This document shows positions 19,311 through 42,288 of a DNA stretch of 64,000 nucleotides, one piece after another. How positions within the stretch are numbered: the stretch's first letter is position 1; each line of letters begins with the position of its first letter. Origin of the DNA: a virus; the IMG/VR virus record IMGVR_UViG_3300044970_000539, positions 32,001-96,000 of that record; one strand, written 5' to 3'. A program made the translations under genes and the position numbers. The notes beneath the pieces are model-generated. The model was given only the letters and a program-made list of their open reading frames with translations. It made no database searches and was not told the DNA's origin.

Positions 19311-19595
19311 ATGAAGCAACATTTATGGAAAGATCAAGCAGCGTGTCTTGGTCTTGATACTAATATCTTTTTTGATAAGTATGAAGACAATGTAGATGTG
19401 CGCCCAATTGTAGATTCAATGTGCCAAAGGTGTCCAGTATCAAAGGTTTGCTTTGCTAACGGTGTTTCTGGTAAAGAGTACGGTGTATGGGGTGGGGTGT
19501 TCCTTGAACTTGGAAATATATCTAGAGAGTTTAATAAACACAAAACCAAACAAGACTGGGCTAATACTTGGCAAGCATTGACAATGGAGAAATAA
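19311..19595 (+). CDS. whiB: WhiB-family transcription regulator
   Basis: W...AAC...FF...CQRCPV...C...GVWGG. Confidence 0.92.
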   Translation: MKQHLWKDQAACLGLDTNIFFDKYEDNVDVRPIVDSMCQRCPVSKVCFANGVSGKEYGVWGGVFLELGNISREFNKHKTKQDWANTWQALTMEK

Positions 19596-21685: not shown

Positions 21686-22720
21686 TTATGAATTAATTAA
21701 ATCAATATACTTTTGTTTTAGTGAGTCTATTGAAAAGTTATTGTTGCCAAGATCAAATGCTTTATCTTTTAACTTGGGAATATCTAAGCCATAATAATCA
21801 TCAACTAATTTACCAAGCATTTTAGCATTTCCATCATAAACATCAAGCATTGTTCTTGTCTGTAGTTCGTCAATCTTATTAGATTCAAATAACCACTCCT
21901 CTGGTAAAACCTTATTGTTTGGAGATATGTTAGTCATAAAAACAGGCAGGGAACTGATTAAAGCCTCATTCATAGGAAGACATAGGCCAGCATACCTTCT
22001 AGGCAATATCATAGCGTCAAAGCCCTCATACAGGCTCTGATGGCTATCTGGGTTTGATTTGTCAATGGTTAATCTTGGATCATTGCATTTTATGTCTAAA
22101 TTGCTCTGGGTTCTTATTACTAACTCATAATCACCGATAGAATAATTAAGCATTTCAATTACTGTGTCAGTACCGTTTCTATCTTTGGCTGCAGCCTTCC
22201 CAGCAATGTGTAATAATCTTTTATGTGTTTTGCTTGTATTTATTTCTCTTGCATTAGAAAATAAGTTAATGTCAGTCGGCGGCGGTATATGAACAACCCT
22301 TGTTTTATCTCCAAATTTACTAACAACATCTTCAAAGTTCCATAGACTAGGAGCAACAAGAACATCAGGCAATGTTTGATTAGGGTTTGCTAAATAATCT
22401 AAAAACTCATAGTTATACTGCAATATTGTTTTTATTCCACGACTTTTTGCAAGATCAACAAACTTTGGATTATAAAATAATTCACAACTAAGAACTACGT
22501 CAATGTCTTTTAAAAATTCTAAGATTTCATTTGTATTTGGAAAACCTTTGATTGTGGTTTGACAGTTGTATCCTTCGTACCATTCAGGATGCTGCTTGTT
22601 TTGATTAAAAAATCTTGAGTTAATAAGCATAATCTTATCAGGATTAAGCATGTTTACTAACTCTCTTGTTTGATTACCAAGACCTGTGTTGTCTGATCTT
22701 GCAATTATTCCTAGTCTCAT
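21686..22720 (-). CDS. GT-B (GT4-like) glycosyltransferase
   Basis: TGLG.QT, DAMILPRRYAGLCLPMNEAL...LPV. Confidence 0.82.
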   Translation of the reverse strand: MRLGIIARSDNTGLGNQTRELVNMLNPDKIMLINSRFFNQNKQHPEWYEGYNCQTTIKGFPNTNEILEFLKDIDVVLSCELFYNPKFVDLAKSRGIKTILQYNYEFLDYLANPNQTLPDVLVAPSLWNFEDVVSKFGDKTRVVHIPPPTDINLFSNAREINTSKTHKRLLHIAGKAAAKDRNGTDTVIEMLNYSIGDYELVIRTQSNLDIKCNDPRLTIDKSNPDSHQSLYEGFDAMILPRRYAGLCLPMNEALISSLPVFMTNISPNNKVLPEEWLFESNKIDELQTRTMLDVYDGNAKMLGKLVDDYYGLDIPKLKDKAFDLGNNNFSIDSLKQKYIDLINS

Positions 22721-23379
22721 GAGTCCATATCTTTATATAGTTGTTTTAATCCATTAAGCGTTCCTATGTCCATATACTTACCGCCAGGACTTACAGATCT
22801 AATATTAAGACTCATATCTATCCAATCCTGTATTTGTTTTCCTGGATGCTCTAGTAATGGATCAATATATCTAATAAGGTTTTTACGAAACAACATTGTC
22901 CCCCACATATCTGGGTAATCACAGTCAGATACTTTGTCTCTAGATGACATAACCTTGCCTTCAGATATTGATACTTGTCCAACTCTACCCTTAAGTTCTG
23001 GATCACAACTCCAGGTTCCAAGAACCAGATCTCCAGAAGTATCCATCATATCTTTATAAATATTGGTTTTGCATCCAAGAATATATGTGTCTGGCATTCC
23101 AATTAAAACGGTATCGTTATAATCTCCAACCATAAACTTAACAGCATCAGACATAGTTGAAGGTTCACGAACAACTAACTTTATATCCATATTCATATTT
23201 TGAATAATAGGAACCCATTCAGCCCTTGTTGAAACTCTAACTTCATCACATACCTCTAGCATTTGATTAACGTGCCATTGAAGTATAGATTCTTTTTCTG
23301 AAACTGGAAGACAAAACTTTGGAATACCACCTATTCTAGATGCTTTTCCTGATGCTGGTAGGATTCCTATTGTAGCCAT
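22717..23379 (-). CDS. sugar-phosphate nucleotidyltransferase
   Basis: GILPASGKASRI..IPK..LPV, GMPD, YMDIGT. Confidence 0.85.
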   Translation of the reverse strand: MATIGILPASGKASRIGGIPKFCLPVSEKESILQWHVNQMLEVCDEVRVSTRAEWVPIIQNMNMDIKLVVREPSTMSDAVKFMVGDYNDTVLIGMPDTYILGCKTNIYKDMMDTSGDLVLGTWSCDPELKGRVGQVSISEGKVMSSRDKVSDCDYPDMWGTMLFRKNLIRYIDPLLEHPGKQIQDWIDMSLNIRSVSPGGKYMDIGTLNGLKQLYKDMDS

Positions 23380-24167
23380 TACCTTAACCCATATTTTTTC
23401 TTTAATGTTGCTATATCATTTACTGGCCAATAGTCTAAAGATTTTGTTGGATCATTAAATGGGTTCTTATATTCTCCCCAACCTTCCCTTGTTCTATCCC
23501 CGCCCCACTTGGCCTTAAAGTAATCGTGAAGAGGTTCAATGTTAATTCTTAGTCCGTCTATTGTTGCGCCTCCGTCTATTTGACATGTTACATCAACTTC
23601 TGCAGCAGGTGCGTTTATTCTCATTACATAACTTATAGGTGCATTAGGATGTACAAACTGACTACGCCAAGAAACTGCAACATCTGAATCAGGATTATTT
23701 ATAACTTGTTCTTCAAGTATTCTGCACCTTTGATCCCAGTCACAATCATCAAAATTATATGGATAAAAATTTTCATCAAAATATCCAATTGCTTCAACCA
23801 ATTTTTTGTTTATTCCAGCCAAATGCCATCCATGCTGTGTTCTAAACATTAAACCATTAAAGCCATTAAGCATATCAACTATATGAGAAAAGGGTTGATT
23901 AAACAACATTGAAGACGAAACAAAAAAGGTCCAGTCGTGATTCTTTTTTAATCCTATGTTCCATGCTCTGGCTAAACCAATATTTTCTGATTGATACTCT
24001 ACCTGAAAGCCATACTTCTTCTCAAATACTTCACACTCTCTGTTGCCACTATTGTCTATAAGTAAAACATTTTTATCTTTTATAGACTCCATGCATTTGT
24101 AGATTCTTTCTGTTACCCTGTAAACAGGTATACAAATTAAATAATCAATCTCAGTATCTATTTGCAT
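23379..24167 (-). CDS. GT2-like glycosyltransferase
   Basis: IDNS, NIGLARAWNIG, IGYFDENFYP..FDDCD; start set at MQIDTE. Confidence 0.8.
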   Translation of the reverse strand: MQIDTEIDYLICIPVYRVTERIYKCMESIKDKNVLLIDNSGNRECEVFEKKYGFQVEYQSENIGLARAWNIGLKKNHDWTFFVSSSMLFNQPFSHIVDMLNGFNGLMFRTQHGWHLAGINKKLVEAIGYFDENFYPYNFDDCDWDQRCRILEEQVINNPDSDVAVSWRSQFVHPNAPISYVMRINAPAAEVDVTCQIDGGATIDGLRINIEPLHDYFKAKWGGDRTREGWGEYKNPFNDPTKSLDYWPVNDIATLKKKYGLR

Positions 24168-30827: not shown

Positions 30828-30880
30828 TTATCCACAGGTTTTATGTTAGAAATGTCATAGTTATCCACAAGTTATCCACA
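30828..30880 (+). promoter_or_regulatory. three perfect DnaA boxes (TTATCCACA)
   Basis: 30828-36, 30861-69, 30872-80. Confidence 0.8.
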
Positions 30881-31554: not shown

Positions 31555-31833
31555 TCAGTCTTCAGCAGCAGAGATTTCCAAAACCTCATCAAGGGTCATG
31601 CCTTCAATGATGTCATCTTCAGTAAGTTTAATAGACTCAAGAAACATTTCAAATGTGTCAGCAATGTATCTGCGACCATCATCTGAAACCTCAACAACCA
31701 AACCCTGTGATGTTAGATATGCCAATGGCAATCCGAGATCGTTGTATTCTATAAAGGCTCTGAAGTCTTTCTCTTCTTTATAGTTTTCATACAACTCCCC
31801 CAGGATTACACACTGTGTTACAAAATCTGTCAC
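31555..31833 (-). CDS. acidic hypothetical protein
   Basis: 92 aa, DLGLPLAY motif. Confidence 0.7.
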   Translation of the reverse strand: MTDFVTQCVILGELYENYKEEKDFRAFIEYNDLGLPLAYLTSQGLVVEVSDDGRRYIADTFEMFLESIKLTEDDIIEGMTLDEVLEISAAED

Positions 31834-32108
31834 TCTTTAACTTCCTGTGCCCTGAAAAAGTCTAGAGCCGTGTCATACATAACTTCTGGGTCAAGGTCAC
31901 GCATCTCGCAAAGTTCTCTCCATGCATACTCTAACTCAAACTCACCAAGAGATGTAAGTGTTACCCACTCTGCTGCGACATACTCTGCTAACTTTAGTTC
32001 ATCTACAAGCCCTGCCCAAAAATCAATTGGTAGGTAAGACACCTCTACAAGGCTTTCAGCCTCAATACTAATGTAAGCCAAAATGTCTGCTATCTTGTTA
32101 TAATCCAT
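31830..32108 (-). CDS. acidic hypothetical protein
   Basis: 92 aa, coupled to neighbours. Confidence 0.65.
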   Translation of the reverse strand: MDYNKIADILAYISIEAESLVEVSYLPIDFWAGLVDELKLAEYVAAEWVTLTSLGEFELEYAWRELCEMRDLDPEVMYDTALDFFRAQEVKE

Positions 32109-32325
32109 GTCTCCACCGTTCCATTTGTAGTTTAGGGTCTAGAATACCTTCTTTTTCATACTCTGCACTTTCAATTATAGCAATTAAACGAGTGTATGTC
32201 AAGTGTGGCAATACCCTAGCAAGCATTATGCCTGTCTGTTCAAGGTCTAGATTTAAGTCCTCAATAATAGGTTTAATTCGCATAGCCACACGCTCTTCTG
32301 GCGTGATACCTCTACTAATTCTCAA
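32098..32325 (-). CDS. hypothetical protein
   Basis: 75 aa, TTG start, G-rich RBS. Confidence 0.6.
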   Translation of the reverse strand: MRISRGITPEERVAMRIKPIIEDLNLDLEQTGIMLARVLPHLTYTRLIAIIESAEYEKEGILDPKLQMERWRHGL

Positions 32326-32438
32326 AGCGTCCCCCTTCTATCCATTATACCAAAAGTATAGGGGGAGGGCAACCCACCACAGATGCCCTCCACCCTTTGG
32401 CATAGTCTGACCCTAGATCTATGCCTGCTCATTGTAAA

Positions 32439-32795
32439 CTAAACTAATGCTGGCAGATAGGCATTAATAAATAACTGCCAGTCAACCTGTAGGTCTTTGC
32501 CTGCTTCATAGATAGTTTCTTTAGCAATATCAATAACGACGGTGGTCTCGCCTAGTTCAAAGTTGGTACCCTTGATAGCATAAATGCCAAACCCTGTTTC
32601 TTCTAGCACGGAGTCTTGAATAAGATAACTAATCATCATACGGGTAAAGTAAGCATAGTCTTTCCACCTAGGCTTTGAATGCTGCAGAGCCATTGCTAGG
32701 TCCCGCTGCCATTCTGTCTCACCCCAGTGGCTATAGAGCACTACGTGTGCTTCATCCTCAACGTCTTTAAATACAAAATTAATACGGGCTCCCAT
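32439..32795 (-). CDS. hypothetical phage protein
   Basis: MGARINF...LYSHWG...Y.TRM. Confidence 0.7.
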   Translation of the reverse strand: MGARINFVFKDVEDEAHVVLYSHWGETEWQRDLAMALQHSKPRWKDYAYFTRMMISYLIQDSVLEETGFGIYAIKGTNFELGETTVVIDIAKETIYEAGKDLQVDWQLFINAYLPALV

Positions 32796-32941
32796 TACTC
32801 TTCTTCCTTCCAAGATACAATTGATAGTTGGTTTAATATTTCATTGACAAGGTCTGCTTCATTATCTGATTCAGCCTCGTATCTAAATGTCATGTAATCA
32901 CCTGTGGGTTCAAAGATGATTTCTACTTTATATTCGTTCAT
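32795..32941 (-). CDS. small acidic protein
   Basis: MNEYKVEIIFEPTG... 48 aa, coupled on both sides. Confidence 0.55.
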   Translation of the reverse strand: MNEYKVEIIFEPTGDYMTFRYEAESDNEADLVNEILNQLSIVSWKEEE

Positions 32942-33300
32942 AGGTCTATTCCTTCGCAGTCGTGGGTTTCTTCTTCAAGTGTATCACCGCAGAAATCACA
33001 TGTCAAGTCTGGTTCTCCTACCATGATTTGAATAATAGTATTATCAGGCACAGGCTTCTCACTAAGGAAATAGCCAATGCGATTAACAAATCCCCAGCCG
33101 CTCCAGATATAGGTACCGCCATCGTCTCCGTCGCCATACATCCAGATGCGGTTTTGTGGCTGGGACTTAATAAACTCTACCTCATCACCATAGGTCTCAT
33201 ACATCAAACCATCAAAGGAGGCATCTATGTCATATGAGTTAAGTATAAACTTAAACTGCTCATCTGCTTCTTCAAAGGTCATTTCAATAAGTTTATCCAT
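32938..33300 (-). CDS. hypothetical phage protein
   Basis: YETYG.E..F, IW...GD, GW.FVNRIGY. Confidence 0.7.
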   Translation of the reverse strand: MDKLIEMTFEEADEQFKFILNSYDIDASFDGLMYETYGDEVEFIKSQPQNRIWMYGDGDDGGTYIWSGWGFVNRIGYFLSEKPVPDNTIIQIMVGEPDLTCDFCGDTLEEETHDCEGIDL

Positions 33301-33538
33301 TGGCCTTGGTCCTATCTGCTATAGCAAATGCTAGTTGGTATGTTAGTTGGTATACATTAGCATATGCGTCAAGTACACCTTCTAAGTAATCTCTTGCAGG
33401 TCCGTCCTCAATACCAGAAAGACGTGTCTGTGTGTCATACATAAGGTTTTTAAGTTCACCGTGTAGGATATCAGTTCCTGACTCTCCCATATCAATTAGT
33501 TTCTGTAGGTTTGGTGCTAGTTTGTCTCCATTTGTCAT
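33293..33538 (-). CDS. hypothetical protein (leaderless)
   Basis: TATACT-N6-ATG. Confidence 0.65.
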   Translation of the reverse strand: MTNGDKLAPNLQKLIDMGESGTDILHGELKNLMYDTQTRLSGIEDGPARDYLEGVLDAYANVYQLTYQLAFAIADRTKANG

Positions 33539-33882
33539 TTATTAAGTATATCCTCTGCTACTGACAAAAGGTGGCGGGTAGCCTCAATTGCTCCAACATT
33601 ATAATGCCAGTCAATTGAATCCTCTCCTAACGATGACTGTTCAATTAGTTCCTTGTCTTGTTCAAGACTGATTAAATGAATCTTCATATACTCAATAAAC
33701 TGGGTCATTATCTATCCTTTCGTAAAGAGGTTTCTCGCAGGGCAGGGTCAAAGATTTCGCAGTAGCAGACATGGCATAGCATGAAGTTATCAGCCTCATC
33801 AACATTAAGTTTATTCTTGCATACTGTGCAGTCGTATTCAGTAAAGGTGGCAAATCGGGTGTAAATTACATTGGTCATAATA

Positions 33883-34098
33883 CTAATTATACGGGTTGGT
33901 GTTGATTTTCACAAGCCCACGGGGTGTGACCTTGCTCACATCTGTAATGATAGGGGCATTTCCATCTTCTTCTGATATTAGGACAACTATTCCATACCCT
34001 CCACAAATACAGGCAGGATCAAGAACCTTATCAGCACAAGCAGTGATTTGAATCAGCGCATCACAATCAGTACATAGATAATCATACTTAGTCCACAT
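33883..34098 (-). CDS. small Zn-ribbon protein
   Basis: CTDC...CICG. Confidence 0.6.
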   Translation of the reverse strand: MWTKYDYLCTDCDALIQITACADKVLDPACICGGYGIVVLISEEDGNAPIITDVSKVTPRGLVKINTNPYN

Positions 34099-34630
34099 TG
34101 ATTACTCCCCAGCACTTATCGCAGGTAAAGCCATTAGGTAGGGAAACATCATCAACTCTATCTCCTTCTACCCCATCCCAGCAGGGTACACAAATAACAC
34201 AATCATCTAAGTAAACACCAATAGTATTCATTAGTCAAAATACCCTTCTGCCCATAAGCCCTGGAGAAACTGTTGTGCCATTAAGATACCCTCTTTATCA
34301 TCAGGGTCAGTTATATACTTATATGAATTGTGTACAGCATTGCTCATCTTATCTAAATCATCAATGGTATAACCTAACATTATTCTCCCCAATATTCTAC
34401 TATAAGGTTTAATGCACTACAGATACGGCAATCACAAGGGTCTCCCCCCATGTTTTCCATAAATTCAATGTGAGAGAAATTATCCTCACAGATTTGTTCA
34501 ACAAGGTCTTTTACTGTGTAAGGTTTGAATGTGGTAGTCATATATTAATTATAGCCGAAATCCTAGAAAAATACAAATCCTTACGTAATCGTAAAGTGTG
34601 TTTAATATCACATTGTCGAAAAATTTCTTG

Positions 34631-34704
34631 CGATCCGTACGGGACTTGAACCCGTGACCTCCACCGTGACAGGGTGGCGAACTAACCAACTATTCTAACG
34701 GACC
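34631..34704 (-). tRNA. trnD: tRNA-Asp(GTC)
   Basis: GGTCCGT/ACGGATC, CCACC-CTGTCAC-GGTGG, GTTCAAGTC. Confidence 0.93.
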
Positions 34705-34707
34705 GTG

Positions 34708-34736
34708 TGAGCAGTTTTAATTCTTACTCAGGAATT
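34708..34736 (-). ncRNA. H-type pseudoknot motif copy
   Basis: AATTC-CTGAGTAA-GAATT-AAAAC-TGCTCA. Confidence 0.65.
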
Positions 34737-34743
34737 TTTTTAA

Positions 34744-35760
34744 TTATGCAATTTGCAAAGTGCTTTGCACAATCTTTAGCAAACGATTTTTTTCTGCATT
34801 AATAGCAGGGTCAAAACCACTTGCAGATGCAAGGATAGATTCGTTAGAACCACCACGAGCAGAACGGTACCAATCAAGGCGTTCAGTTAGTGCATTGAAA
34901 GCACCCCAAGCATTACCAGCAATCATGCCGTTAAACTCGCCTGTGTAGATGTCATTGATAACATCAACCTTGTTTTCCCACTTCTTGAAAGCACCCTTAG
35001 AATCTTTTTCTGGCTTAGGGTATGCAGCAAGAATGATGTCGTTAAATTGCTTAGCAGAAACTTCCTTCTCAATCATAGCCTTAGCCATGAGGTCAAAAGA
35101 ATCCATGTACTTGTGAGCCATGCCAAGAGTCTCACGAGCAACGGCAACCTTACCAGAAGCGGTCTGAGTGTGGCGAATCTTGAAAGATTGCTTGACACCA
35201 TTCTTTTTCTTAGTAGTGTTTAGTGCAAGATTAAGAGTGTTAGCGCACACAACACGAACAGGTGTAATGCTTGCTTGAATAGCGATTGAGCCGTCATGTG
35301 ATGTGTTGATAAGTAAATAAGTCTTTACCTTATCTGCAACACCGTTAGGGTCTAGGACAGTTTCACGCTCTAGTGCTAATGCACCGAATACGACACGACC
35401 ACCCTTGATTGAGCCAGCCGTTTCCCAACGACCTCCACCGTCAAGAATGTTGTCACCGAATGAGAATAAATCTTCATTCTGCATAACATGATAACGCTCA
35501 CCAACGACACCAAGAATGTCGGTCTGTGAGTTATCAGTAGGGTTAGTACGCAAAACATACTGGTATGCCTTGTCGCTTGTTAAGTGTGATGGGGTTTCCA
35601 AATCTTCCAGACGAACATTCCAATTATTTAGATTGGCAGCAGCAAGCATTTCGCTTGTTGTTTTTTCTTCTGTAAATACGGTACCCAATCCATGCCAAGC
35701 AGGTTCACGAAATGATGCAAAACTTGCTACGCCATTTTGTGATTCTAGTTCATGTGCCAT
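34744..35760 (-). CDS. DUF932-family (TIGR03299-like) protein
   Basis: MAHELE...REPAWHGLG, Y..MQN, ETAGS..GG, YLLI.TSHDGS, TPVRVVCANTL. Confidence 0.88.
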   Translation of the reverse strand: MAHELESQNGVASFASFREPAWHGLGTVFTEEKTTSEMLAAANLNNWNVRLEDLETPSHLTSDKAYQYVLRTNPTDNSQTDILGVVGERYHVMQNEDLFSFGDNILDGGGRWETAGSIKGGRVVFGALALERETVLDPNGVADKVKTYLLINTSHDGSIAIQASITPVRVVCANTLNLALNTTKKKNGVKQSFKIRHTQTASGKVAVARETLGMAHKYMDSFDLMAKAMIEKEVSAKQFNDIILAAYPKPEKDSKGAFKKWENKVDVINDIYTGEFNGMIAGNAWGAFNALTERLDWYRSARGGSNESILASASGFDPAINAEKNRLLKIVQSTLQIA

Positions 35761-35936
35761 GAGTTTTCTCCTTTTTGTTGTTGTTAATTTAAGTATACAC
35801 GGACGGTCTGACAAATGCAAATCGGGATAGTTAAACATAGGGCAATTCGGACATTTTTCTTGTGATCTTAAACACATGCTCGTAACTTGACATTGACTGG
35901 TCAGCCGTGTCGAAAAATTTTTCAAGGGATTGAGCG

Positions 35937-35964
35937 GAGCAGTTTTAAAACATGCTCAGGTTTT
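35937..35964 (-). ncRNA. H-type pseudoknot motif copy
   Basis: AAAAC-CTGAGCAT-GTTTT-AAAAC-TGCTC. Confidence 0.65.
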
Positions 35965-35979
35965 GTTAGTAGCCCCCTA

Positions 35980-36396
35980 CTAAATATCTACTCTGTCAAC
36001 ACTGGATGACAAATAAGTTACCTCTTCACCATATGAAACAGAATCAAAATCAATTTCATGAATTGCATTAATTGCTTCTTCTTCATTACGTGCATTGACT
36101 GTAATTGAATACTGAACTGAAACTTCCAATTCAAATTCTTTTGCTAATTCAAAACCACAGATGTCTGCAATTTCTTGTGCAGTGCTCTCATCAATGGTAC
36201 CGTTTTCCATTGTTTCCAAGGTCCACTCTTGCATTTCATTACGCATACGGGAGCGCTCTGCAGCCTCGCCGTATGAGCGCTGAGTTACTTCTTGAATGTG
36301 CTTTTCTAATTGCTCAATGCGTGTTTTGTTTTGTACTAGTTGTGACTCAAGAAACTCTCGTGTCATGTAGTGATTGTCTATTACTGGTTGGTCCAT
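35980..36396 (-). CDS. acidic hypothetical protein
   Basis: 138 aa, own promoter and RBS. Confidence 0.75.
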   Translation of the reverse strand: MDQPVIDNHYMTREFLESQLVQNKTRIEQLEKHIQEVTQRSYGEAAERSRMRNEMQEWTLETMENGTIDESTAQEIADICGFELAKEFELEVSVQYSITVNARNEEEAINAIHEIDFDSVSYGEEVTYLSSSVDRVDI

Positions 36397-36472
36397 GGGG
36401 GCCCTCTTTCTGTTAGTTGTTTAATTTAATTATACTGGGCACCACTGACAAATGTCAAGATCCCCTTACGGG

Positions 36473-36499
36473 GAGTAGTTTATACACATACTCAGGTGT
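36473..36499 (-). ncRNA. H-type pseudoknot motif copy
   Basis: ACAC-CTGAGTAT-GTGT-ATAAAC-TACTC. Confidence 0.65.
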
Positions 36500-36554
36500 C
36501 TCATCTCAGGCATACCTACGCATCATGGCATAGGGCTTAGCAGAGATAAATTAT

Positions 36555-36980
36555 TTAGAGATAACGAGCAATAGCGTTGTATGTAGAAGTATTAACTACT
36601 TCCTCATCTGTCATCTTGAGAATACGAATAGCGTTCTCAATTTCCTGCTTTTGCTCTAGGTATGAGTGACGACCCATTTGCTCAAACTCACGCTCAGGCT
36701 CTACTGGCAGACCTTCTTTAGATACTGTCAGGTCAAAGTCAATGTTGAGTTGGTTGTTCCATGAGCGATAGTTAGTGCGGAAGTTTTCTGCCTTCTTGAT
36801 GTTTGCTACTGCATACTCAACAAGTTCCTTCTGCCACTTCTCATAAGCCTTCTTATACTTTGCTTCGTTTGCTTCTTGTGAGGTGTAAGACTTTTCTAGT
36901 TCTGCTAAACGAGTTTCTAGTGCCTTAATTACCTTTGGTGTTGCGATTTTTACTGAGATTGATTTTCCGTTTCTTGCCAT
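36555..36980 (-). CDS. hypothetical phage protein
   Basis: 141 aa helical, EIENAIRILKMTDEE.V.TSTY. Confidence 0.75.
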   Translation of the reverse strand: MARNGKSISVKIATPKVIKALETRLAELEKSYTSQEANEAKYKKAYEKWQKELVEYAVANIKKAENFRTNYRSWNNQLNIDFDLTVSKEGLPVEPEREFEQMGRHSYLEQKQEIENAIRILKMTDEEVVNTSTYNAIARYL

Positions 36981-37025
36981 GTGTTTTCTCTTTTCTTTGG
37001 TGGTTTAATTGTTAGGGGGTTGTGT

Positions 37026-37054
37026 TGAGCAGTTTGTATTCATGCTCAGGAATA
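37026..37054 (-). ncRNA. H-type pseudoknot motif copy
   Basis: TATTC-CTGAGCAT-GAATA-CAAAC-TGCTCA. Confidence 0.65.
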
Positions 37055-37064
37055 AGCAATTAGA

Positions 37065-37229
37065 TTACTTAGCCGTCCAAGTTGTGTATCGGTGTGAGCC
37101 ATTGACATCTAACTTTACACGAACATTACCATTTGGTTGTGGGTTAATCTCTACGATTGTTCCTGTTACCTTTGACTTCTGTGTTGTGTATGTGTCGCCT
37201 ACCTTGTAGGTTGCTGTTGCTACTGACAT
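37065..37229 (-). CDS. small SH3/KOW-like beta protein
   Basis: YKVGD...TGTIVEI...VRVKL; AAGGAG RBS. Confidence 0.65.
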   Translation of the reverse strand: MSVATATYKVGDTYTTQKSKVTGTIVEINPQPNGNVRVKLDVNGSHRYTTWTAK

Positions 37230-37444
37230 TGTGTTTCTCCTTTTGTTTAGTGTGTTTTGCTTATGTATTAAGTGTAACATTTCCTACTGACATTATCAAC
37301 ATTTTTCTGAGATTTCTCACTATTTGAGACGCTCAGGGGGTGTGAGTTGAGTCACATTAGACAGATTGAGGGCTATTGTCCACCTGCCACGATTAGCATG
37401 ATTAGTAGCCCTATTCCTGTTGCTATTACTATTTCCATTTTTCC

Positions 37445-38167
37445 TCATTTCTTTGTTGCTGAGAATACTATGTCACTCTTTGAGTATACACAAAGTGAGC
37501 AAGAAACGCAAGCCGAACCCTTAGTGCTAATTAGTGGTATCTGCTTATTATTCTCAGGACACTTAGCGCCAGGTTTATTTGTTAGGGCTTTCATGTCTGC
37601 TTGTCCAATTAGAAAGTTTTTAGCAAGGTATGCTAATTTAACTCCATGATCTGTTTTTAATTCCACACCTGTATCTTTATTCTCGCTATCTGTGGAATAG
37701 TATAGTGAGAGATTATCAATACCCTTCAACATTAGGGCGGCACTTTTAACTCTAGTGTAAACCCAGAATTGAATATCAGGATTATTAAGGATGACATGCT
37801 TCCATGCGAATGTATAAGTATCGTTAAAGAAGTCTCCGTCCCAATGGATACGGAATAGCATAGGGGCTTCACGCTTTACACAATCAGCCTTGAAGTCTTT
37901 TATCATATCTTCAAGCAATGCTTCAATAGTATCGTGATCAGCGTCTTTAACTAATTCCCAATTGTGCAATAGGTTTTTCTTTACTGTTGGGAATACTTTT
38001 TCCAATTTGCCAGCATAACAAACACTCTCGCATACGCTAGTCGCTCCAGGGCATGAATAAGCCTTTCCTGCGGGTAATCCGAAAGTGTTGGCGATACTTG
38101 CTTGTTTTCCATTTGGTGTAACTGCATTTGCTACTTTCCTATCTTTGCTTCTTAGTAGTTTAGTCAT
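37445..38167 (-). CDS. GP88-like protein (Cys-rich, possible Fe-S enzyme)
   Basis: FGLPAG..SCPGAT..C..VCYA, FRIHWDGDF, FWVYTR, NLSLY.S.D. Confidence 0.75.
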   Translation of the reverse strand: MTKLLRSKDRKVANAVTPNGKQASIANTFGLPAGKAYSCPGATSVCESVCYAGKLEKVFPTVKKNLLHNWELVKDADHDTIEALLEDMIKDFKADCVKREAPMLFRIHWDGDFFNDTYTFAWKHVILNNPDIQFWVYTRVKSAALMLKGIDNLSLYYSTDSENKDTGVELKTDHGVKLAYLAKNFLIGQADMKALTNKPGAKCPENNKQIPLISTKGSACVSCSLCVYSKSDIVFSATKK

Positions 38168-38421
38168 GGTGGCTACTCTCTTTCTTTCTTTAATTCTAAC
38201 ATAAGGGACTGACATTTTTTTCTATCGTATTTTTTCTTATTGGGTACGGCAGAGGCAGCGTTAGACCTACGTAATTCCATAAGCCTACGTAATTCCTCTT
38301 TGCTTTTCTTCATACTTAATCTTAGCAGAATCGTGGAAAAATGTCAAATCTTACGTAAACACGACACGCCCGACTGCGTTCGAAAATTTTGTGCGGGGAA
38401 GCACACAAAATCTTTTTTTAA

Positions 38422-38664
38422 TTATTCGTCAGCGTCTACGTAAACGTAAAGAGAAACTGATTCATCATACTTAAATTGCACAATGTCTTTGTCACCAAAA
38501 TCGGTTTTATAAGCAACCGCATAGACATCGCCTGTTTCATCGGATGCAATTCCAAGTACTTCAACAACCTCACCATCAACCATGATTAGATCTTCAATCA
38601 TTAGTTGATCTGGTGTTAGGCTATCTGCAAATTTTAATTCCATATTAGATATTGTAACAGTCAT
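38422..38664 (-). CDS. small acidic beta protein
   Basis: ORF with GGGGG RBS. Confidence 0.6.
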   Translation of the reverse strand: MTVTISNMELKFADSLTPDQLMIEDLIMVDGEVVEVLGIASDETGDVYAVAYKTDFGDKDIVQFKYDESVSLYVYVDADE

Positions 38665-38727
38665 TTTAACGAGCCCCCGCAATCATTAGTAGGAATAAAA
38701 AGCAGCCTGCAACAAATAAGAATTCTA

Positions 38728-39048
38728 TCACTCAAGCCCCAATCCTAACTCATAGCCTGCATCCTCTTCGCCATAGTATTCATCTTGTGGCAACCAAAAA
38801 TCCAAGTGGTGTTGTTCAATGATAGCCCACGCTGGTGCATGACTCATGCCTTTATAGAATACGCCTTCTGGCATAGCAATAAATCGCATAGCGTCATTCT
38901 CATAGTATGCATCAATAGCATCAATGCAAGGTTGCACCATGCTTAGCGGTACTGGTGGATAGTGATTACCTTGCAAGTGATAACCAATAGCCTGTTCAAG
39001 TGGTAGATCTAAGTTTGTTGCTAGGTCAATTCCTGTCATGCTTCCCAT
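38728..39048 (-). CDS. hypothetical phage protein
   Basis: HLQGNHYPPVP...C..AI...HHL..W. Confidence 0.7.
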   Translation of the reverse strand: MGSMTGIDLATNLDLPLEQAIGYHLQGNHYPPVPLSMVQPCIDAIDAYYENDAMRFIAMPEGVFYKGMSHAPAWAIIEQHHLDFWLPQDEYYGEEDAGYELGLGLE

Positions 39049-39269
39049 TATCGTGTTGTTACCTTTCCCATGCGGTCAATAATTTTTGTGTGCATTTTGC
39101 CTGACGGCTCTGATAAATTAATTGTTGAGTACTCATTAGCAAACCCGACATCAACAAAGCGTTGGTATGCTTCCACGGCAGTTAAAGCATCTGAGTAACG
39201 ACCAACCCAATTAGGCTTAGTGCCTGAGTCATAGGTTACTGTTATTGAGTATAGGTATTCATTATTCAT
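39048..39269 (-). CDS. hypothetical protein
   Basis: 73 aa, coupled. Confidence 0.65.
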   Translation of the reverse strand: MNNEYLYSITVTYDSGTKPNWVGRYSDALTAVEAYQRFVDVGFANEYSTINLSEPSGKMHTKIIDRMGKVTTR

Positions 39270-39448
39270 TATGCATTCTCCAATGTGTATTCGTTTAATT
39301 CATTACTAGCGTACCATTCGCAATACTCATTTTCAAGTGTCATGCCTTTAACGCACTCACAAAACTCTGAGTCAAACTCCTCATGACCATTACCAAAAAA
39401 GAGGACACCCTCATCATAGCAATCATAGCAATCCCAATTATTCATTTA

Positions 39449-39658
39449 TTAGTCTCCAATCTTTACTGCAAGTATGCGGTATGTATCTTTTAAGTTAAGT
39501 GGTGCTGAGTAGTGGGGGCGTACCTGAACACGATAAGACTCGCAATCTTGATACCATACATCAGACTTTTCTGCTGAGATAATTTCTCCCGTAAGTGTGC
39601 GGGACTTATAAGTTTTTCCTACAAGTAGGTTTTCTATTGTATAGACATTTGCTGACAT
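39449..39658 (-). CDS. hypothetical protein
   Basis: 69 aa, AGAGG RBS, own promoter. Confidence 0.65.
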   Translation of the reverse strand: MSANVYTIENLLVGKTYKSRTLTGEIISAEKSDVWYQDCESYRVQVRPHYSAPLNLKDTYRILAVKIGD

Positions 39659-39915
39659 TTGCCAACCTCTTTCTTTTTGTTGATAATTCTATCCTACCAT
39701 AGGGGTCTGACATTTTCTGTTAGACACGCCCAAAGGTAATAGACTTTCTTTTATTTATTTTTTCTTACTATGTAAGTCTAGCCTATTAGACAAAAAATCT
39801 CAAGTTACTTATGAGTAATCTTAAATAGTGAGACGCTCAAGCCATGTGACAAATCTCACAAATCTAGCCTGTGGATAACTCTGTGGAAGACACGCCCGAA
39901 CGGGTCGAAAAAATT

Positions 39916-39944
39916 TAAGCAGTTTGAAATCATGCTTAGGATTT
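39916..39944 (-). ncRNA. H-type pseudoknot motif copy
   Basis: AAATC-CTAAGCAT-GATTT-CAAAC-TGCTTA. Confidence 0.65.
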
Positions 39945-39949
39945 TGATT

Positions 39950-40102
39950 TTACTTTTTAAGTCGCTCAGTTCGCAACGCAACCTGCAATCTGCGAATTTC
40001 TTTATGTTGCTCAACGTTTTGTTTCCAAAACGCAATCATCATTCCAACAGATCCAGCAAGTGCAATTACAATTGCGATAAGTGTTCCAGTGTCTAGAATC
40101 AT
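39950..40102 (-). CDS. small membrane protein
   Basis: MILDTGTLIAIVIALAGSVGMMIAFWK... 50 aa. Confidence 0.6.
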   Translation of the reverse strand: MILDTGTLIAIVIALAGSVGMMIAFWKQNVEQHKEIRRLQVALRTERLKK

Positions 40103-40284
40103 GCTTTCACCTCAACACCATCAACGCAAGCATCATAGAATTTATTTTCATCAAATCTAGGATTATCAGAAGCAAACCATTCGCTAAATTCAAAAACTAA
40201 TTGGTCAAAATCATTTGAGTCAATGTCATCAACGAATTTGTTTAGAATTTTTGCAGTTTCTACATAGTCTTTACGAGTCATCAT
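40099..40284 (-). CDS. hypothetical phage protein
   Basis: MTRKDY...A.I...F..DNPRFD..KF..AC. Confidence 0.75.
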   Translation of the reverse strand: MMTRKDYVETAKILNKFVDDIDSNDFDQLVFEFSEWFASDNPRFDENKFYDACVDGVEVKA

Positions 40285-40490
40285 TATTCGGCCACCTTTA
40301 GAATTGCATAAGAGCCACCTTCATTGATGTGGTCCAAGATTGGTTGAAGTTTAGAACCGACTAGGTCCTTGAGCATTGACTCAAGCATTGCAATTTGCAT
40401 TTCTTTTTCTAGTGCAAGAAGTTGCATTCCTACTGGATGAGTCTCGTCTACCTCTGTGACGAACTTTAGATTGTGTTCAATTTTTACCAT
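40284..40490 (-). CDS. hypothetical protein
   Basis: MVKIEHNLK..., AGGA RBS. Confidence 0.6.
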   Translation of the reverse strand: MVKIEHNLKFVTEVDETHPVGMQLLALEKEMQIAMLESMLKDLVGSKLQPILDHINEGGSYAILKVAE

Positions 40491-40509
40491 GTTTAGTTTT
40501 CCTATTCTT

Positions 40510-40707
40510 TTAGTTTGAGTTAGTAAGTGTACGAGTGCCACGAAGTACGCCACGAACGCCAAGGGCATCACATGACATTTTTACGGATACGCCAACAGGT
40601 AATTGTGTTGGGTAAGTTGATACGAATTGAGCAACCGCACCACGAGAGGCAAGGTTGATTTTTTTAGTTGAACCTGAAAAGGTTTCTAGTGTAACAGTGT
40701 AAGTCAT
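40510..40707 (-). CDS. hypothetical protein
   Basis: 65 aa, AAGGA RBS, own promoter. Confidence 0.65.
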   Translation of the reverse strand: MTYTVTLETFSGSTKKINLASRGAVAQFVSTYPTQLPVGVSVKMSCDALGVRGVLRGTRTLTNSN

Positions 40708-41563
40708 TGAGTGACTTCCTTTCTTTAAGTGATAAGACTATCCTATCATGGGGCACTGACAAATTGGGGCACTTATTCGCTAGGCTCACTGTGATACTGG
40801 TCACATTTATTTGCTAGGCTCATTGCCTTGTCTGTCCTTATTTAATTGTTATACTAGAAGTATAGCAAGGAAATGTCAAAAAGTCAAGTCCTGCATGGGC
40901 GTGTCGTGTGTGATTTACACCACACCTACCCTGTGGATAAGCCTGTGGATAACTTTTGTCGAAAATTTTTCAGGGGATCAATCCTGAAAAACTTTTCTAT
41001 TAACTATGAATTGCAATAACAAAAGCAAAACAAGTAATTGCGATTAGAATAACTAACATTAGTTTTCCTCAATTTCATTTAGTAGTTCCCATAGCACGGG
41101 TTCTAGTGCAAGGGCTGCTTCATCTAACTTTTCTTGTAAGGTTTTCATTTACTTACCTTCATTCTTTCTAATTATTGCAATGCATTCTCTAATTGCAGTA
41201 ACGCCATTCTGGTCGCCACGATACTCAATGATTAGGTTTTCTAATTCACGAATTGTTTTTTCCATTTATGCAATCTCCAATTCGTTATAGTCAATAACCT
41301 GAAAGTCATGTCTTTCTAGTGGCATAGCCTTTAGCCATGATAGTGCAGACTCAAAGTCCTCAGCCTCAATAGTAACCATTAGGTCAAAGTTAAATAGTGT
41401 CATTACTTTACCTCCTTGTATAAAAAGTCCCAAGCCTTACGGCATAACACAATTGATTTGCAATTGTCACAACAGATAACCCCATGAGGGTTAAGGTCTA
41501 GGTCATAGACATCTACGCTGGCAGATGTCGCCCCACATACTGAGGGGAGATTAACAAAGGTAC

Positions 41564-41764
41564 TCATCTTGTAAGTCCTTCCTTTCCATAAGTGTTAATA
41601 AAATCAGGGAGAGCCATTACGCCCTTGTAGTCTTTACATCTAGGGCAAAATCTATTCCACCCGTCAAATAGTGTTATGCAAAAAGCGCAAATGTTATCCA
41701 TAGCGCATAAGCCTTGCTCATCTATAAATTGCATAGTGTCTAAGAATTGATTAGTCTGGTTCAT
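41564..41764 (-). CDS. small Zn-finger protein
   Basis: CAFC...CPRC.DYKG. Confidence 0.65.
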   Translation of the reverse strand: MNQTNQFLDTMQFIDEQGLCAMDNICAFCITLFDGWNRFCPRCKDYKGVMALPDFINTYGKEGLTR

Positions 41765-42288
41765 TTAGTCACATACCAATCTGTCCACATAGGGAATTGC
41801 TCAGGGTCACTATCATAGTAGTAACGCTCAATGTTTTGTTCACAATCTACGCAGAAAGTGAATTGGTTATCCCCTACCTCGGAGATAGCGGAATACTGAG
41901 GATTATGCTCAGTGCATTTTGTTAGTGTAGTCATTTTGACCTACCTTTCGTTAAGGGATTTCTTTACCCTTGTTTTTCTTTATACTGTAAGTGTAGCATG
42001 GGGGTCTGACAAATTGCAAACCCAAAATGGTATCAAAACGGACATTGTGAGGCGTATCACATGAGACATAGGTCACATTTGAATGGTCAAAGATAAAAAT
42101 GACCATTTTCTACGGCGTGTCGCCTTGACAAAATCGGGTCGAAAAAAAGTTATCCACAACCCCTGTGTATAAACTATGTGACGGGTATCACAAAAATACT
42201 TTCCCGACACGCCCGAAAAACAGGCTAATTTGTCAGTGGTAGGTGCTAGAATACTATGTATAAAGATTAACAAAGAAAGGTGTTCCCA

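Follow-up and report, generated by a model that had tools for sequence, protein, structure and literature searches.

The Crp/GlxR-type regulators of Actinobacteria, represented by CRP of Mycobacterium tuberculosis (CRPMt, Rv3676) and GlxR of Corynebacterium glutamicum, recognize operators with the 16-bp palindrome TGTGA-N6-TCACA. In Escherichia coli, class I CRP sites of the lac type are centered near positions -61.5, -71.5, -82.5, and -92.5, on a single face of the helix with a periodicity of about 10–11 bp, and activation from them requires CRP bound to cyclic AMP and the C-terminal domain of the alpha subunit. A palindrome of two pentamers separated by six nucleotides (5-N6-5) is the binding site of both E. 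coli CRP (CRPEc) and CRPMt (PMC5758884). In CRPMt sites the outer and inner positions are degenerate, core positions 2, 3, 14, and 15 and the discriminators G4/C13 are constrained, and the protein contacts DNA through Arg188, Glu189, and Lys193 (PMC5758884). Promoters dependent on PafBC (RecA-NDp), which are read by “sigma adaptation,” have the consensus tGTCgg(N10)tA(N3)T, in which an upstream element at -28 to -23 replaces the -35 hexamer; no upstream Crp site is described for them (PMC8635444). Here we describe a set of TGTGA-N6-TCACA palindromes, hereafter boxes, in a 64,000-nucleotide stretch of phage DNA (the window) comprising bases 32001–96000 of the 105,135-bp IMG/VR virus record IMGVR_UViG_3300044970_000539, which carries terminal repeats. 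The boxes share the palindrome of the Crp/GlxR operators, and most of their partner promoters share the geometry of PafBC-dependent ones.

Pattern counting in the window revealed six perfect boxes, starting at 33925, 37341, 39845, 40790, 42046, and 42177, and four boxes with one mismatch, at 34597, 35861, 40909, and 42062, all within the same 8.3 kb (33925–42192). Each is a 16-bp inverted repeat with exactly six nucleotides between the pentamers, as in a CRP/GlxR-type site. Dinucleotide-preserving shuffles of the window contained 0.08 perfect boxes on average, and six were reached in none of 100 shuffles. Perfect boxes are confined to the 33925–42192 region: no further one was found in the whole 105,135-bp genome, in which two one-mismatch sites lie outside the region, and a single one-mismatch site occurs elsewhere in the window, at 23729. 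The minus-strand genes extend over about 21.6–42.27 kb, and a divergent control region is located at 42.0–42.28 kb; every box falls within, or borders on, a spacer 5′ of a transcription unit. The region belongs to a block of small genes (33500–42280) syntenic with the terminal-repeat region of Streptomyces cluster BE phages, which is probably their early region. An earlier sequence-only reading of this stretch had reported six perfect and four one-mismatch boxes and the distance of each from its promoter. Both counts are reproduced here, that of the perfect boxes lying far above the shuffles, and all ten distances were recovered, nine by computation and the tenth (51.5 bp for box 34597) by reading TATAAT at 34553–34548.

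The conservation of the boxes was assessed in 80 loci of relatives (1.32 Mb), which were fetched through a protein and not through the motif. These loci contain 404 perfect boxes (about 0.3 per kb), with about 1.5 expected from base composition. The 321 distinct perfect sites have, by definition, invariant pentamers; their flanks are uninformative, and the N6 varies: position 6 is T, C, or G, with A in only 9 of the 321, position 11 mirrors position 6, and the center prefers A/T. When 16-mers were picked by their position relative to the promoter, their mismatch counts were bimodal (two or fewer, or four or more), and the boxes are therefore discrete sites. Among 143 in-phase boxes with one or two mismatches, changes fall at positions 1 (41), 5 (64), 12 (30), 16 (15), and 2 (17) and rarely at positions 3 (1), 4 (1), 13 (1), 14 (5), and 15 (2), these being counts of sequences and not of independent events. 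This tolerance mirrors that of CRPMt in the degenerate positions, in the core, and in the G4/C13 discriminators; the proposed match to the CRP/GlxR consensus is thus borne out down to which positions (1, 5, 12, and 16) tolerate change. Relatives whose large terminase (TerL) is only 55–58% identical carry the same box at the same spacings, although these contigs were found through the motif, and relatives in which perfect boxes are scarce have in-phase boxes with one mismatch and not another palindrome. The boxes exist, are conserved, and are strictly spaced, and these comparisons support them as real, family-conserved protein-binding sites. They differ from the described Crp/GlxR operators in that nearly all are perfect consensus sites, present once per promoter and at quantized distances.

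Six boxes (35861, 37341, 40790, the 42046/42062 pair, and 42177) serve promoters of the type TGTCAG-N10-TAnnnT, and four (33925, 34597, 39845, and 40909) serve sigma-70-like promoters, of which a few are also present in the window. Across 81 loci, 654 copies of TGTCAG-N10-TAnnnT lie on the coding strand and 52 on the opposite one. The motif follows the geometry of the PafBC-type promoter, without a -35 hexamer, and differs from it in having TGTCAG in place of TGTCGG; its use by host PafBC is predicted from this likeness. About 60% of the TGTCAG promoters carry no box.

Distances were measured from the box center to the first base of the -10 element, read on the promoter strand. They cluster at 52.5, 62.5, and 71.5–73.5 bp, with minor groups at 57.5–58.5 and 87.5–90.5 bp. 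Among 985 distinct TGTCAG promoters, perfect boxes stand at 52.5 bp in 89, at 62.5 bp in 75, and at 71.5–73.5 bp in 98, and none were found at 47.5, 67.5, or 77.5 bp. The same three peaks were obtained in an independent pattern scan of IMG/VR in which the gap was left free over 20–50 bp. Unrelated spacer sequences share their lengths within one distance class, so it is the length and not the sequence that is kept. A Rayleigh test on 39 spacer clusters, built greedily within each length class since single linkage had merged all spacers into one cluster, peaks at a period of 9.5–10 bp (p about 2e-5). The sigma-70-like promoters use 41.5, 51.5, 52.5, and 72.5 bp, and in the relatives a near-consensus -10 lies at exactly 41.5 bp, as at 33925, in 43 of the 154 boxes that have no TGTCAG promoter.

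The on-ladder and off-ladder cases are separated by a further element, ATGTCY, a distinction that, as far as can be told, is new. Spacers without ATGTCY fall almost exclusively at 52.5, 61.5–63.5, and 71.5–73.5 bp, and spacers with it make up the off-ladder groups at 57.5/58.5 and 87.5–90.5 bp. This split accounts for the exception in the earlier reading, box 42046 at 58.5 bp, after which ATGTCCG comes directly. In some cassettes the element is conserved between box and TGTCAG in the longer form ATGTCCGAWTT (35840–35850 and 42039–42045; relatives L030, L035, L044, and L064), and its start prefers distances of 23, 33–34, and 41 bp from TGTCAG.

The arrangement resembles E. coli class I promoters in the single upstream site, the steps of about 10 bp, and the empty half-turn positions. 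It differs from them in its register, which is displaced by about 3 bp, and in its doubtful dependence on cyclic AMP (cAMP); most of its core promoters, moreover, have no -35 element and carry TGTCAG at -26 instead. Of the class I phasing that had been proposed, the periodicity of about 10 bp on one face of the helix therefore stands, and it is kept in the relatives over hundreds of promoters; the class I register itself does not.

Searches of the whole genome gave neither an integrase nor a resolvase, in agreement with the earlier impression that an integrase is lacking. Together with the G+C content of about 36–40%, the actinobacterial genes, and the lake relatives, this identifies the phage as a lytic freshwater actinophage of low GC content. 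Its relatives abound in lake metagenomes, a homolog of the GP88 gene occurring in at least 599 IMG/VR contigs. An actinobacterial host is supported by the phage WhiB protein, by an iron-sulfur (Fe-S) carrier closest to those of Actinomycetota, and by the TAnnnT -10 elements. The obvious candidate host is the low-GC freshwater acI lineage, Nanopelagicales (PMC6802176). For host identification the Fe-S carrier was not discriminating, with about 60% identity to proteins of many Actinomycetota orders, and the WhiB protein, compared across 401 Actinomycetota genomes, was uninformative at about 40% identity.

All 41 Nanopelagicales genomes searched (G002–G042) encode a Crp-family protein above the Pfam cut-off. 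Two of these proteins were read; they have the recognition helix GASRETVNKALADFA (SRETVNK), with the R-E-x-x-x-K pattern of CRPMt, and keep the FGELS...RTS motif of the cyclic-nucleotide pocket. The candidate host Crp thus has the same recognition helix as the actinobacterial Crp. Nothing notable was seen in the vicinity of the host crp gene. None of the 41 genomes gave a class III cyclase (PF00211) or CYTH (PF01928) domain, with C. glutamicum among the positive controls, in domain searches that could miss a novel cyclase class and for a host order that is unconfirmed; no cyclase was found in the phage genome either. With neither cyclase in the 41 candidate hosts and none in the phage, the suggestion that early genes are gated by the cAMP or carbon and energy state of the host is unsupported, and cAMP dependence of the boxes appears doubtful. 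The related idea of a commitment switch fares no better, since, in the absence of an integrase, it is not evident to which other state the phage could commit itself. If Nanopelagicales are the hosts, their Crp may be independent of cAMP or respond to another ligand, and the presence of Crp without a recognizable cyclase raises the question of what it senses there.

We infer that the binder is the host Crp and that its effect is activation, the boxes serving as phased upstream sites at which a host Crp/GlxR-type protein would co-activate the early promoters; we consider the balance for this reading to be about even. The predicted binder, a dimeric winged-helix protein of the CRP/FNR family, would occupy a single site at each promoter, always on the same face of the helix and four to seven turns 5′ of the -10 element. 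From there it would help to recruit or position the host RNA polymerase, in the manner of class I CRP sites, both at the PafBC-type (TGTCAG-N10-TAnnnT) and at the few sigma-70-like promoters, and would thereby boost the first wave of phage transcription. In an acI-type host without a cyclase, Crp would be largely independent of cAMP, and the boxes would be a constitutive recruitment platform and not a nutrient sensor. Mycobacterial CRP is able to bind DNA without cAMP. An encoded competitor is hard to find in the phage: matches to HTH_Crp_2, cNMP_binding, and HTH_3 are absent from its genome, Pfam and PHROGs scans assigned none of 20 small early open reading frames (ORFs) to a DNA-binding family, and the same scans of about 30 larger ORFs gave no DNA-binding candidate other than one weak HTH_17 match. 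That match, the sole helix-turn-helix hint in the genome, scores 19–20 bits, below the cut-off, and lies in a basic 180-aa ORF outside the window (genome positions 22455–22997; L294:1291–1833).

A wider proposal can be made only tentatively, as a possibility with more against it than for it. According to it, an abundant, globally distributed group of lytic freshwater actinophages of about 105 kb would use composite early promoters that borrow two switches of the host, a PafBC-type -26 element and a Crp box held to one face of the helix. In acI hosts without a cyclase, Crp would need no cAMP, and the box would be a constitutive, high-affinity pad with which the phage out-competes the chromosome; ATGTCY would be the mark of a third factor by which the off-ladder promoters are re-phased.

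Several observations weigh against the host Crp. If the -10 element occupies -12 to -7, the box centers lie near -54, -64.5, -74.5, and -84.5, with an uncertainty of 1–2 bp since transcription starts are deduced from the -10, and so miss the E. coli class I positions. The host is placed to phylum level only. Of 61 Nanopelagicales genomes, 7 have a perfect box, at most one in each and without excess over the reversed control, and one-mismatch sites show no excess in sets of 61 and 41 genomes (blunt whole-genome counts, for an unconfirmed host); no host regulon with the motif is therefore demonstrated. Conserved near-matches in these genomes were considered as regulon sites and rejected, those inspected lying inside the rpoA and tuf coding sequences. 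Streptomyces phage NootNoot, the nearest cultured relative (TerL identity about 54%), has no perfect box in its 131 kb, and no TGTCAG promoters were found in its early region; no footprint is therefore to be had from cultured relatives. Many of the phage ORFs also lack a known function, so that one of them may encode a binder. Finally, arrays in unrelated viruses show that the palindrome can serve proteins that are not host CRP. In IMG/VR, pairs of boxes 60–90 bp apart were found in at least 118 stretches, as compared with 10 for the reversed palindrome, and are thus at least 12 times commoner; the unrelated viral contigs with palindrome arrays span 26–68% GC. Use of the box by unrelated phages was considered as support for host Crp and rejected, since many of these contigs have dense, A/T-centered, iteron-like arrays. 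Such arrays, with 5–17 copies of TGTGAA-(A/T)4-TTCACA spaced by 20–60 bp, occur in unrelated contigs of 26–46% GC (L315, L362, L354, L331, L330, L303, L310, L341, L345, and L342, one of them 176 kb long). They share the outer pentamers and the N6 with the boxes but have A at position 6, a center of A/T only, and a dense clustering, whereas the family of this phage avoids A there and has its boxes distributed singly among promoters. The appearance of the dense arrays suggests iterons, or operators for a different protein whose site has the outer pentamers in common. In another unrelated IMG/VR virus (L339, 50% GC), four of five TGTGA-N6-TCACA boxes are followed after 5–6 nt by a conserved GGGTGGC, which is a different composite element.

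Several of these points would fit a phage-encoded dimeric protein that binds the palindrome and activates the promoters or later shuts them off, the likeness to CRP being coincidence or mimicry. The lack of boxes in the closest cultured relative implies that box use is lineage-specific, the candidate host genomes lack enrichment of the motif, most phage ORFs have no assigned function, and the dense arrays look like sites of phage proteins. Such a protein could possibly be delivered with the virion or made from box-less promoters; with about 60% of the TGTCAG promoters box-less, the first wave could produce a regulator, for which the weak HTH_17 protein and the few basic early proteins (37065–37229, 40510–40707, and GP88) are conceivable sources. 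This explanation, which we rate as rather unlikely though a serious competitor, is opposed by the lack of any CRP-like or HTH_3 domain in the genome and by the acidity of nearly all early proteins. Moreover, relatives with as little as 55% TerL identity keep the motif unchanged, with its CRP-like tolerance, whereas phage operator/repressor pairs usually co-diverge, and the boxes, at -54 to -85, occupy activator positions and not operator positions over the promoter core.

The host Crp might also bind with a different outcome, dampening or timing early transcription, or being drawn off the chromosome by boxes that act as high-affinity decoys. Actinobacterial Crp is both an activator and a repressor, and box 40790 lies about 54 bp 3′ of the start expected for the promoter at 40887–40851. 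With six perfect boxes per phage genome against none or one per sampled Nanopelagicales chromosome, replicating phage DNA could out-compete the host sites. A decoy, however, needs neither strict helical phasing to the -10 nor one box per promoter, and a position four to seven turns 5′ of the -10 is untypical of repressors, so that we regard this outcome as improbable. Still less credence, amounting to a slight chance, is given to another host factor, either a second CRP/FNR paralog or an unrelated dimer. Some Nanopelagicales genomes contain two to four HTH_Crp_2 matches, and in M. tuberculosis the motifs of two CRP-family proteins overlap (PMC5758884); the boxes, however, keep G4/C13, the discriminator that favors CRPMt over Cmr, and the additional host HTH_Crp_2 matches are below the family cut-off.

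Phages that read global regulators of the host at their first promoters tie the success of infection to host physiology. Few cases are documented, and a literature search found none for actinophages or uncultured freshwater phages. The likely hosts of this phage family belong to the most abundant bacteria of fresh water. The quantized spacing over hundreds of promoter variants also provides a natural experiment on the geometry of actinobacterial activation, including that of PafBC-type promoters.

The large terminase and the DUF932 protein of the phage are about 53–55% identical to their counterparts in Streptomyces cluster BE phages, where small genes surround the DUF932 gene within the long terminal repeat. 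A Megablast search of the early region against cultured phages gave no match. The block at 33500–42280 contains about 32 small minus-strand genes, whose products are mostly acidic or rich in Cys; they form short groups, each served by a separate promoter and terminator. The block is marked by the genes for DUF932 (34744–35760) and GP88 (37445–38167). About 32 small early ORFs of the minus strand, at 31555–41934, code for proteins that are nearly all strongly acidic (isoelectric point 4–5), and the basic ones are the few named above. About ten are Cys-rich (4–5 Cys in 45–70 aa), which suggests zinc-ribbon-like host-takeover proteins. The A-type Fe-S cluster carrier (PF01521; 42889–43218, plus strand) is among the first genes of the rightward unit; it is about 60% identical to actinobacterial homologs, and its closest homologs are all from Actinomycetota. 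The phage therefore encodes both this carrier and WhiB (19311–19595), itself an Fe-S protein. The other genes include those for glycosyltransferases, an endolysin, tail fibers, and the GP88-family protein.

At the left end of the box region, the perfect box TGTGACCTTGCTCACA (33925–33940) lies within the 3′ end of a 71-aa minus-strand ORF (33883–34098), 41.5 bp from the -10 of TTGTGA-N17-TATAAT (33914–33886, minus strand). The one-mismatch box TGTGTTTAATATCACA (34597–34612) is located just 3′ of tRNA-Asp (34630–34704) and 51.5 bp from the minus-strand TATAAT at 34553–34548. An ATG stands at 33878, 7 nt past the -10 of the first of these promoters, and another at 34541, 6 nt past the TATAAT of the second. 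Both TATAAT-ATG pairs (33878–33891 and 34541–34553) are without a Shine-Dalgarno sequence and look like the starts of leaderless mRNAs, which are common in Actinobacteria.

The one-mismatch box TGTGATCTTAAACACA (35861–35876) stands 71.5 bp from the -10 TATACT (35797–35792) of a minus-strand promoter with TGTCAG at 35813–35808, which is predicted to drive the DUF932 gene; the spacer of this box holds the element ATGTCCGAATT. The perfect box TGTGAGTTGAGTCACA (37341–37356) is 72.5 bp from the -10 TACACT (37276–37271) of a TGTCAG-type promoter (37292–37287, minus strand). The perfect box TGTGACAAATCTCACA (39845–39860) has a DnaA-box-like TTATCCACA 10 bp upstream (39870–39878) and is 72.5 bp from the -10 of the sigma-70-like TTGAGA-17-TAGACT (39803–39775, minus strand); this distance uses the weaker sigma-70-like match, and the nearest TGTCAG-type promoter, with its -10 at 39696, is 156.5 bp off. 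A near-palindrome, TGAGCGTCTCA, occurs at 37325–37335 and 39829–39839, at the same offset after boxes 37341 and 39845, and is conserved in the 73.5-bp class of relatives.

The perfect box TGTGATACTGGTCACA (40790–40805) is 52.5 bp from the -10 TAGGAT (40745–40740) of a TGTCAG-type promoter (40761–40756, minus strand). Direct repeats GAGCCTAGC lie on both sides of it (40781–40789 and 40808–40816), and the same flanks are found in one relative (L079); the arrangement of this box and its promoter likewise recurs in relatives. The one-mismatch box TGTGATTTACACCACA (40909–40924), beside two TTATCCACA copies (40932 and 40944), is 52.5 bp from the -10 of TTGACT-17-TATACT (40887–40859, minus strand), and an equally good overlapping promoter, TTGACA-17-TAGTAT (40879–40851), would give 60.5 bp instead. 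A TGTGC-N6-GCACA palindrome near 38390 was rejected as a box, being a terminator stem.

In the divergent region, the perfect box TGTGAGGCGTATCACA (42046–42061) is 58.5 bp from the -10 TACACT (41995–41990) of a TGTCAG-type promoter (42011–42006, minus strand). The one-mismatch box TGAGACATAGGTCACA (42062–42077) abuts it, 74.5 bp from the same -10; tandem pairs at 58.5/74.5 bp are also found in relatives. The perfect box TGTGACGGGTATCACA (42177–42192) is 62.5 bp from the -10 TAGAAT (42247–42252) of a plus-strand promoter with TGTCAG at 42231–42236, which starts the rightward genes at 42280.

Perfect copies of the DnaA-box-like TTATCCACA occur at 39870, 40932, 40944, and 42150, and also at 30828, 30861, and 30872, and stand directly 5′ of boxes 39845, 40909, and 42177. 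The order within a cassette is terminator, TTTTCGAC, GGCGTGTC, DnaA-like box, CRP-type box, and promoter. The elements GACACGCC(CGA) and GTCGAAAA(ATTT) recur, at 38363, 39723, 39889, 40898, 42114, and 42206 and at 34615, 35909, 39904, 40958, and 42138, respectively. GTCGAAAA invariably follows a terminator hairpin and is present on one strand only.

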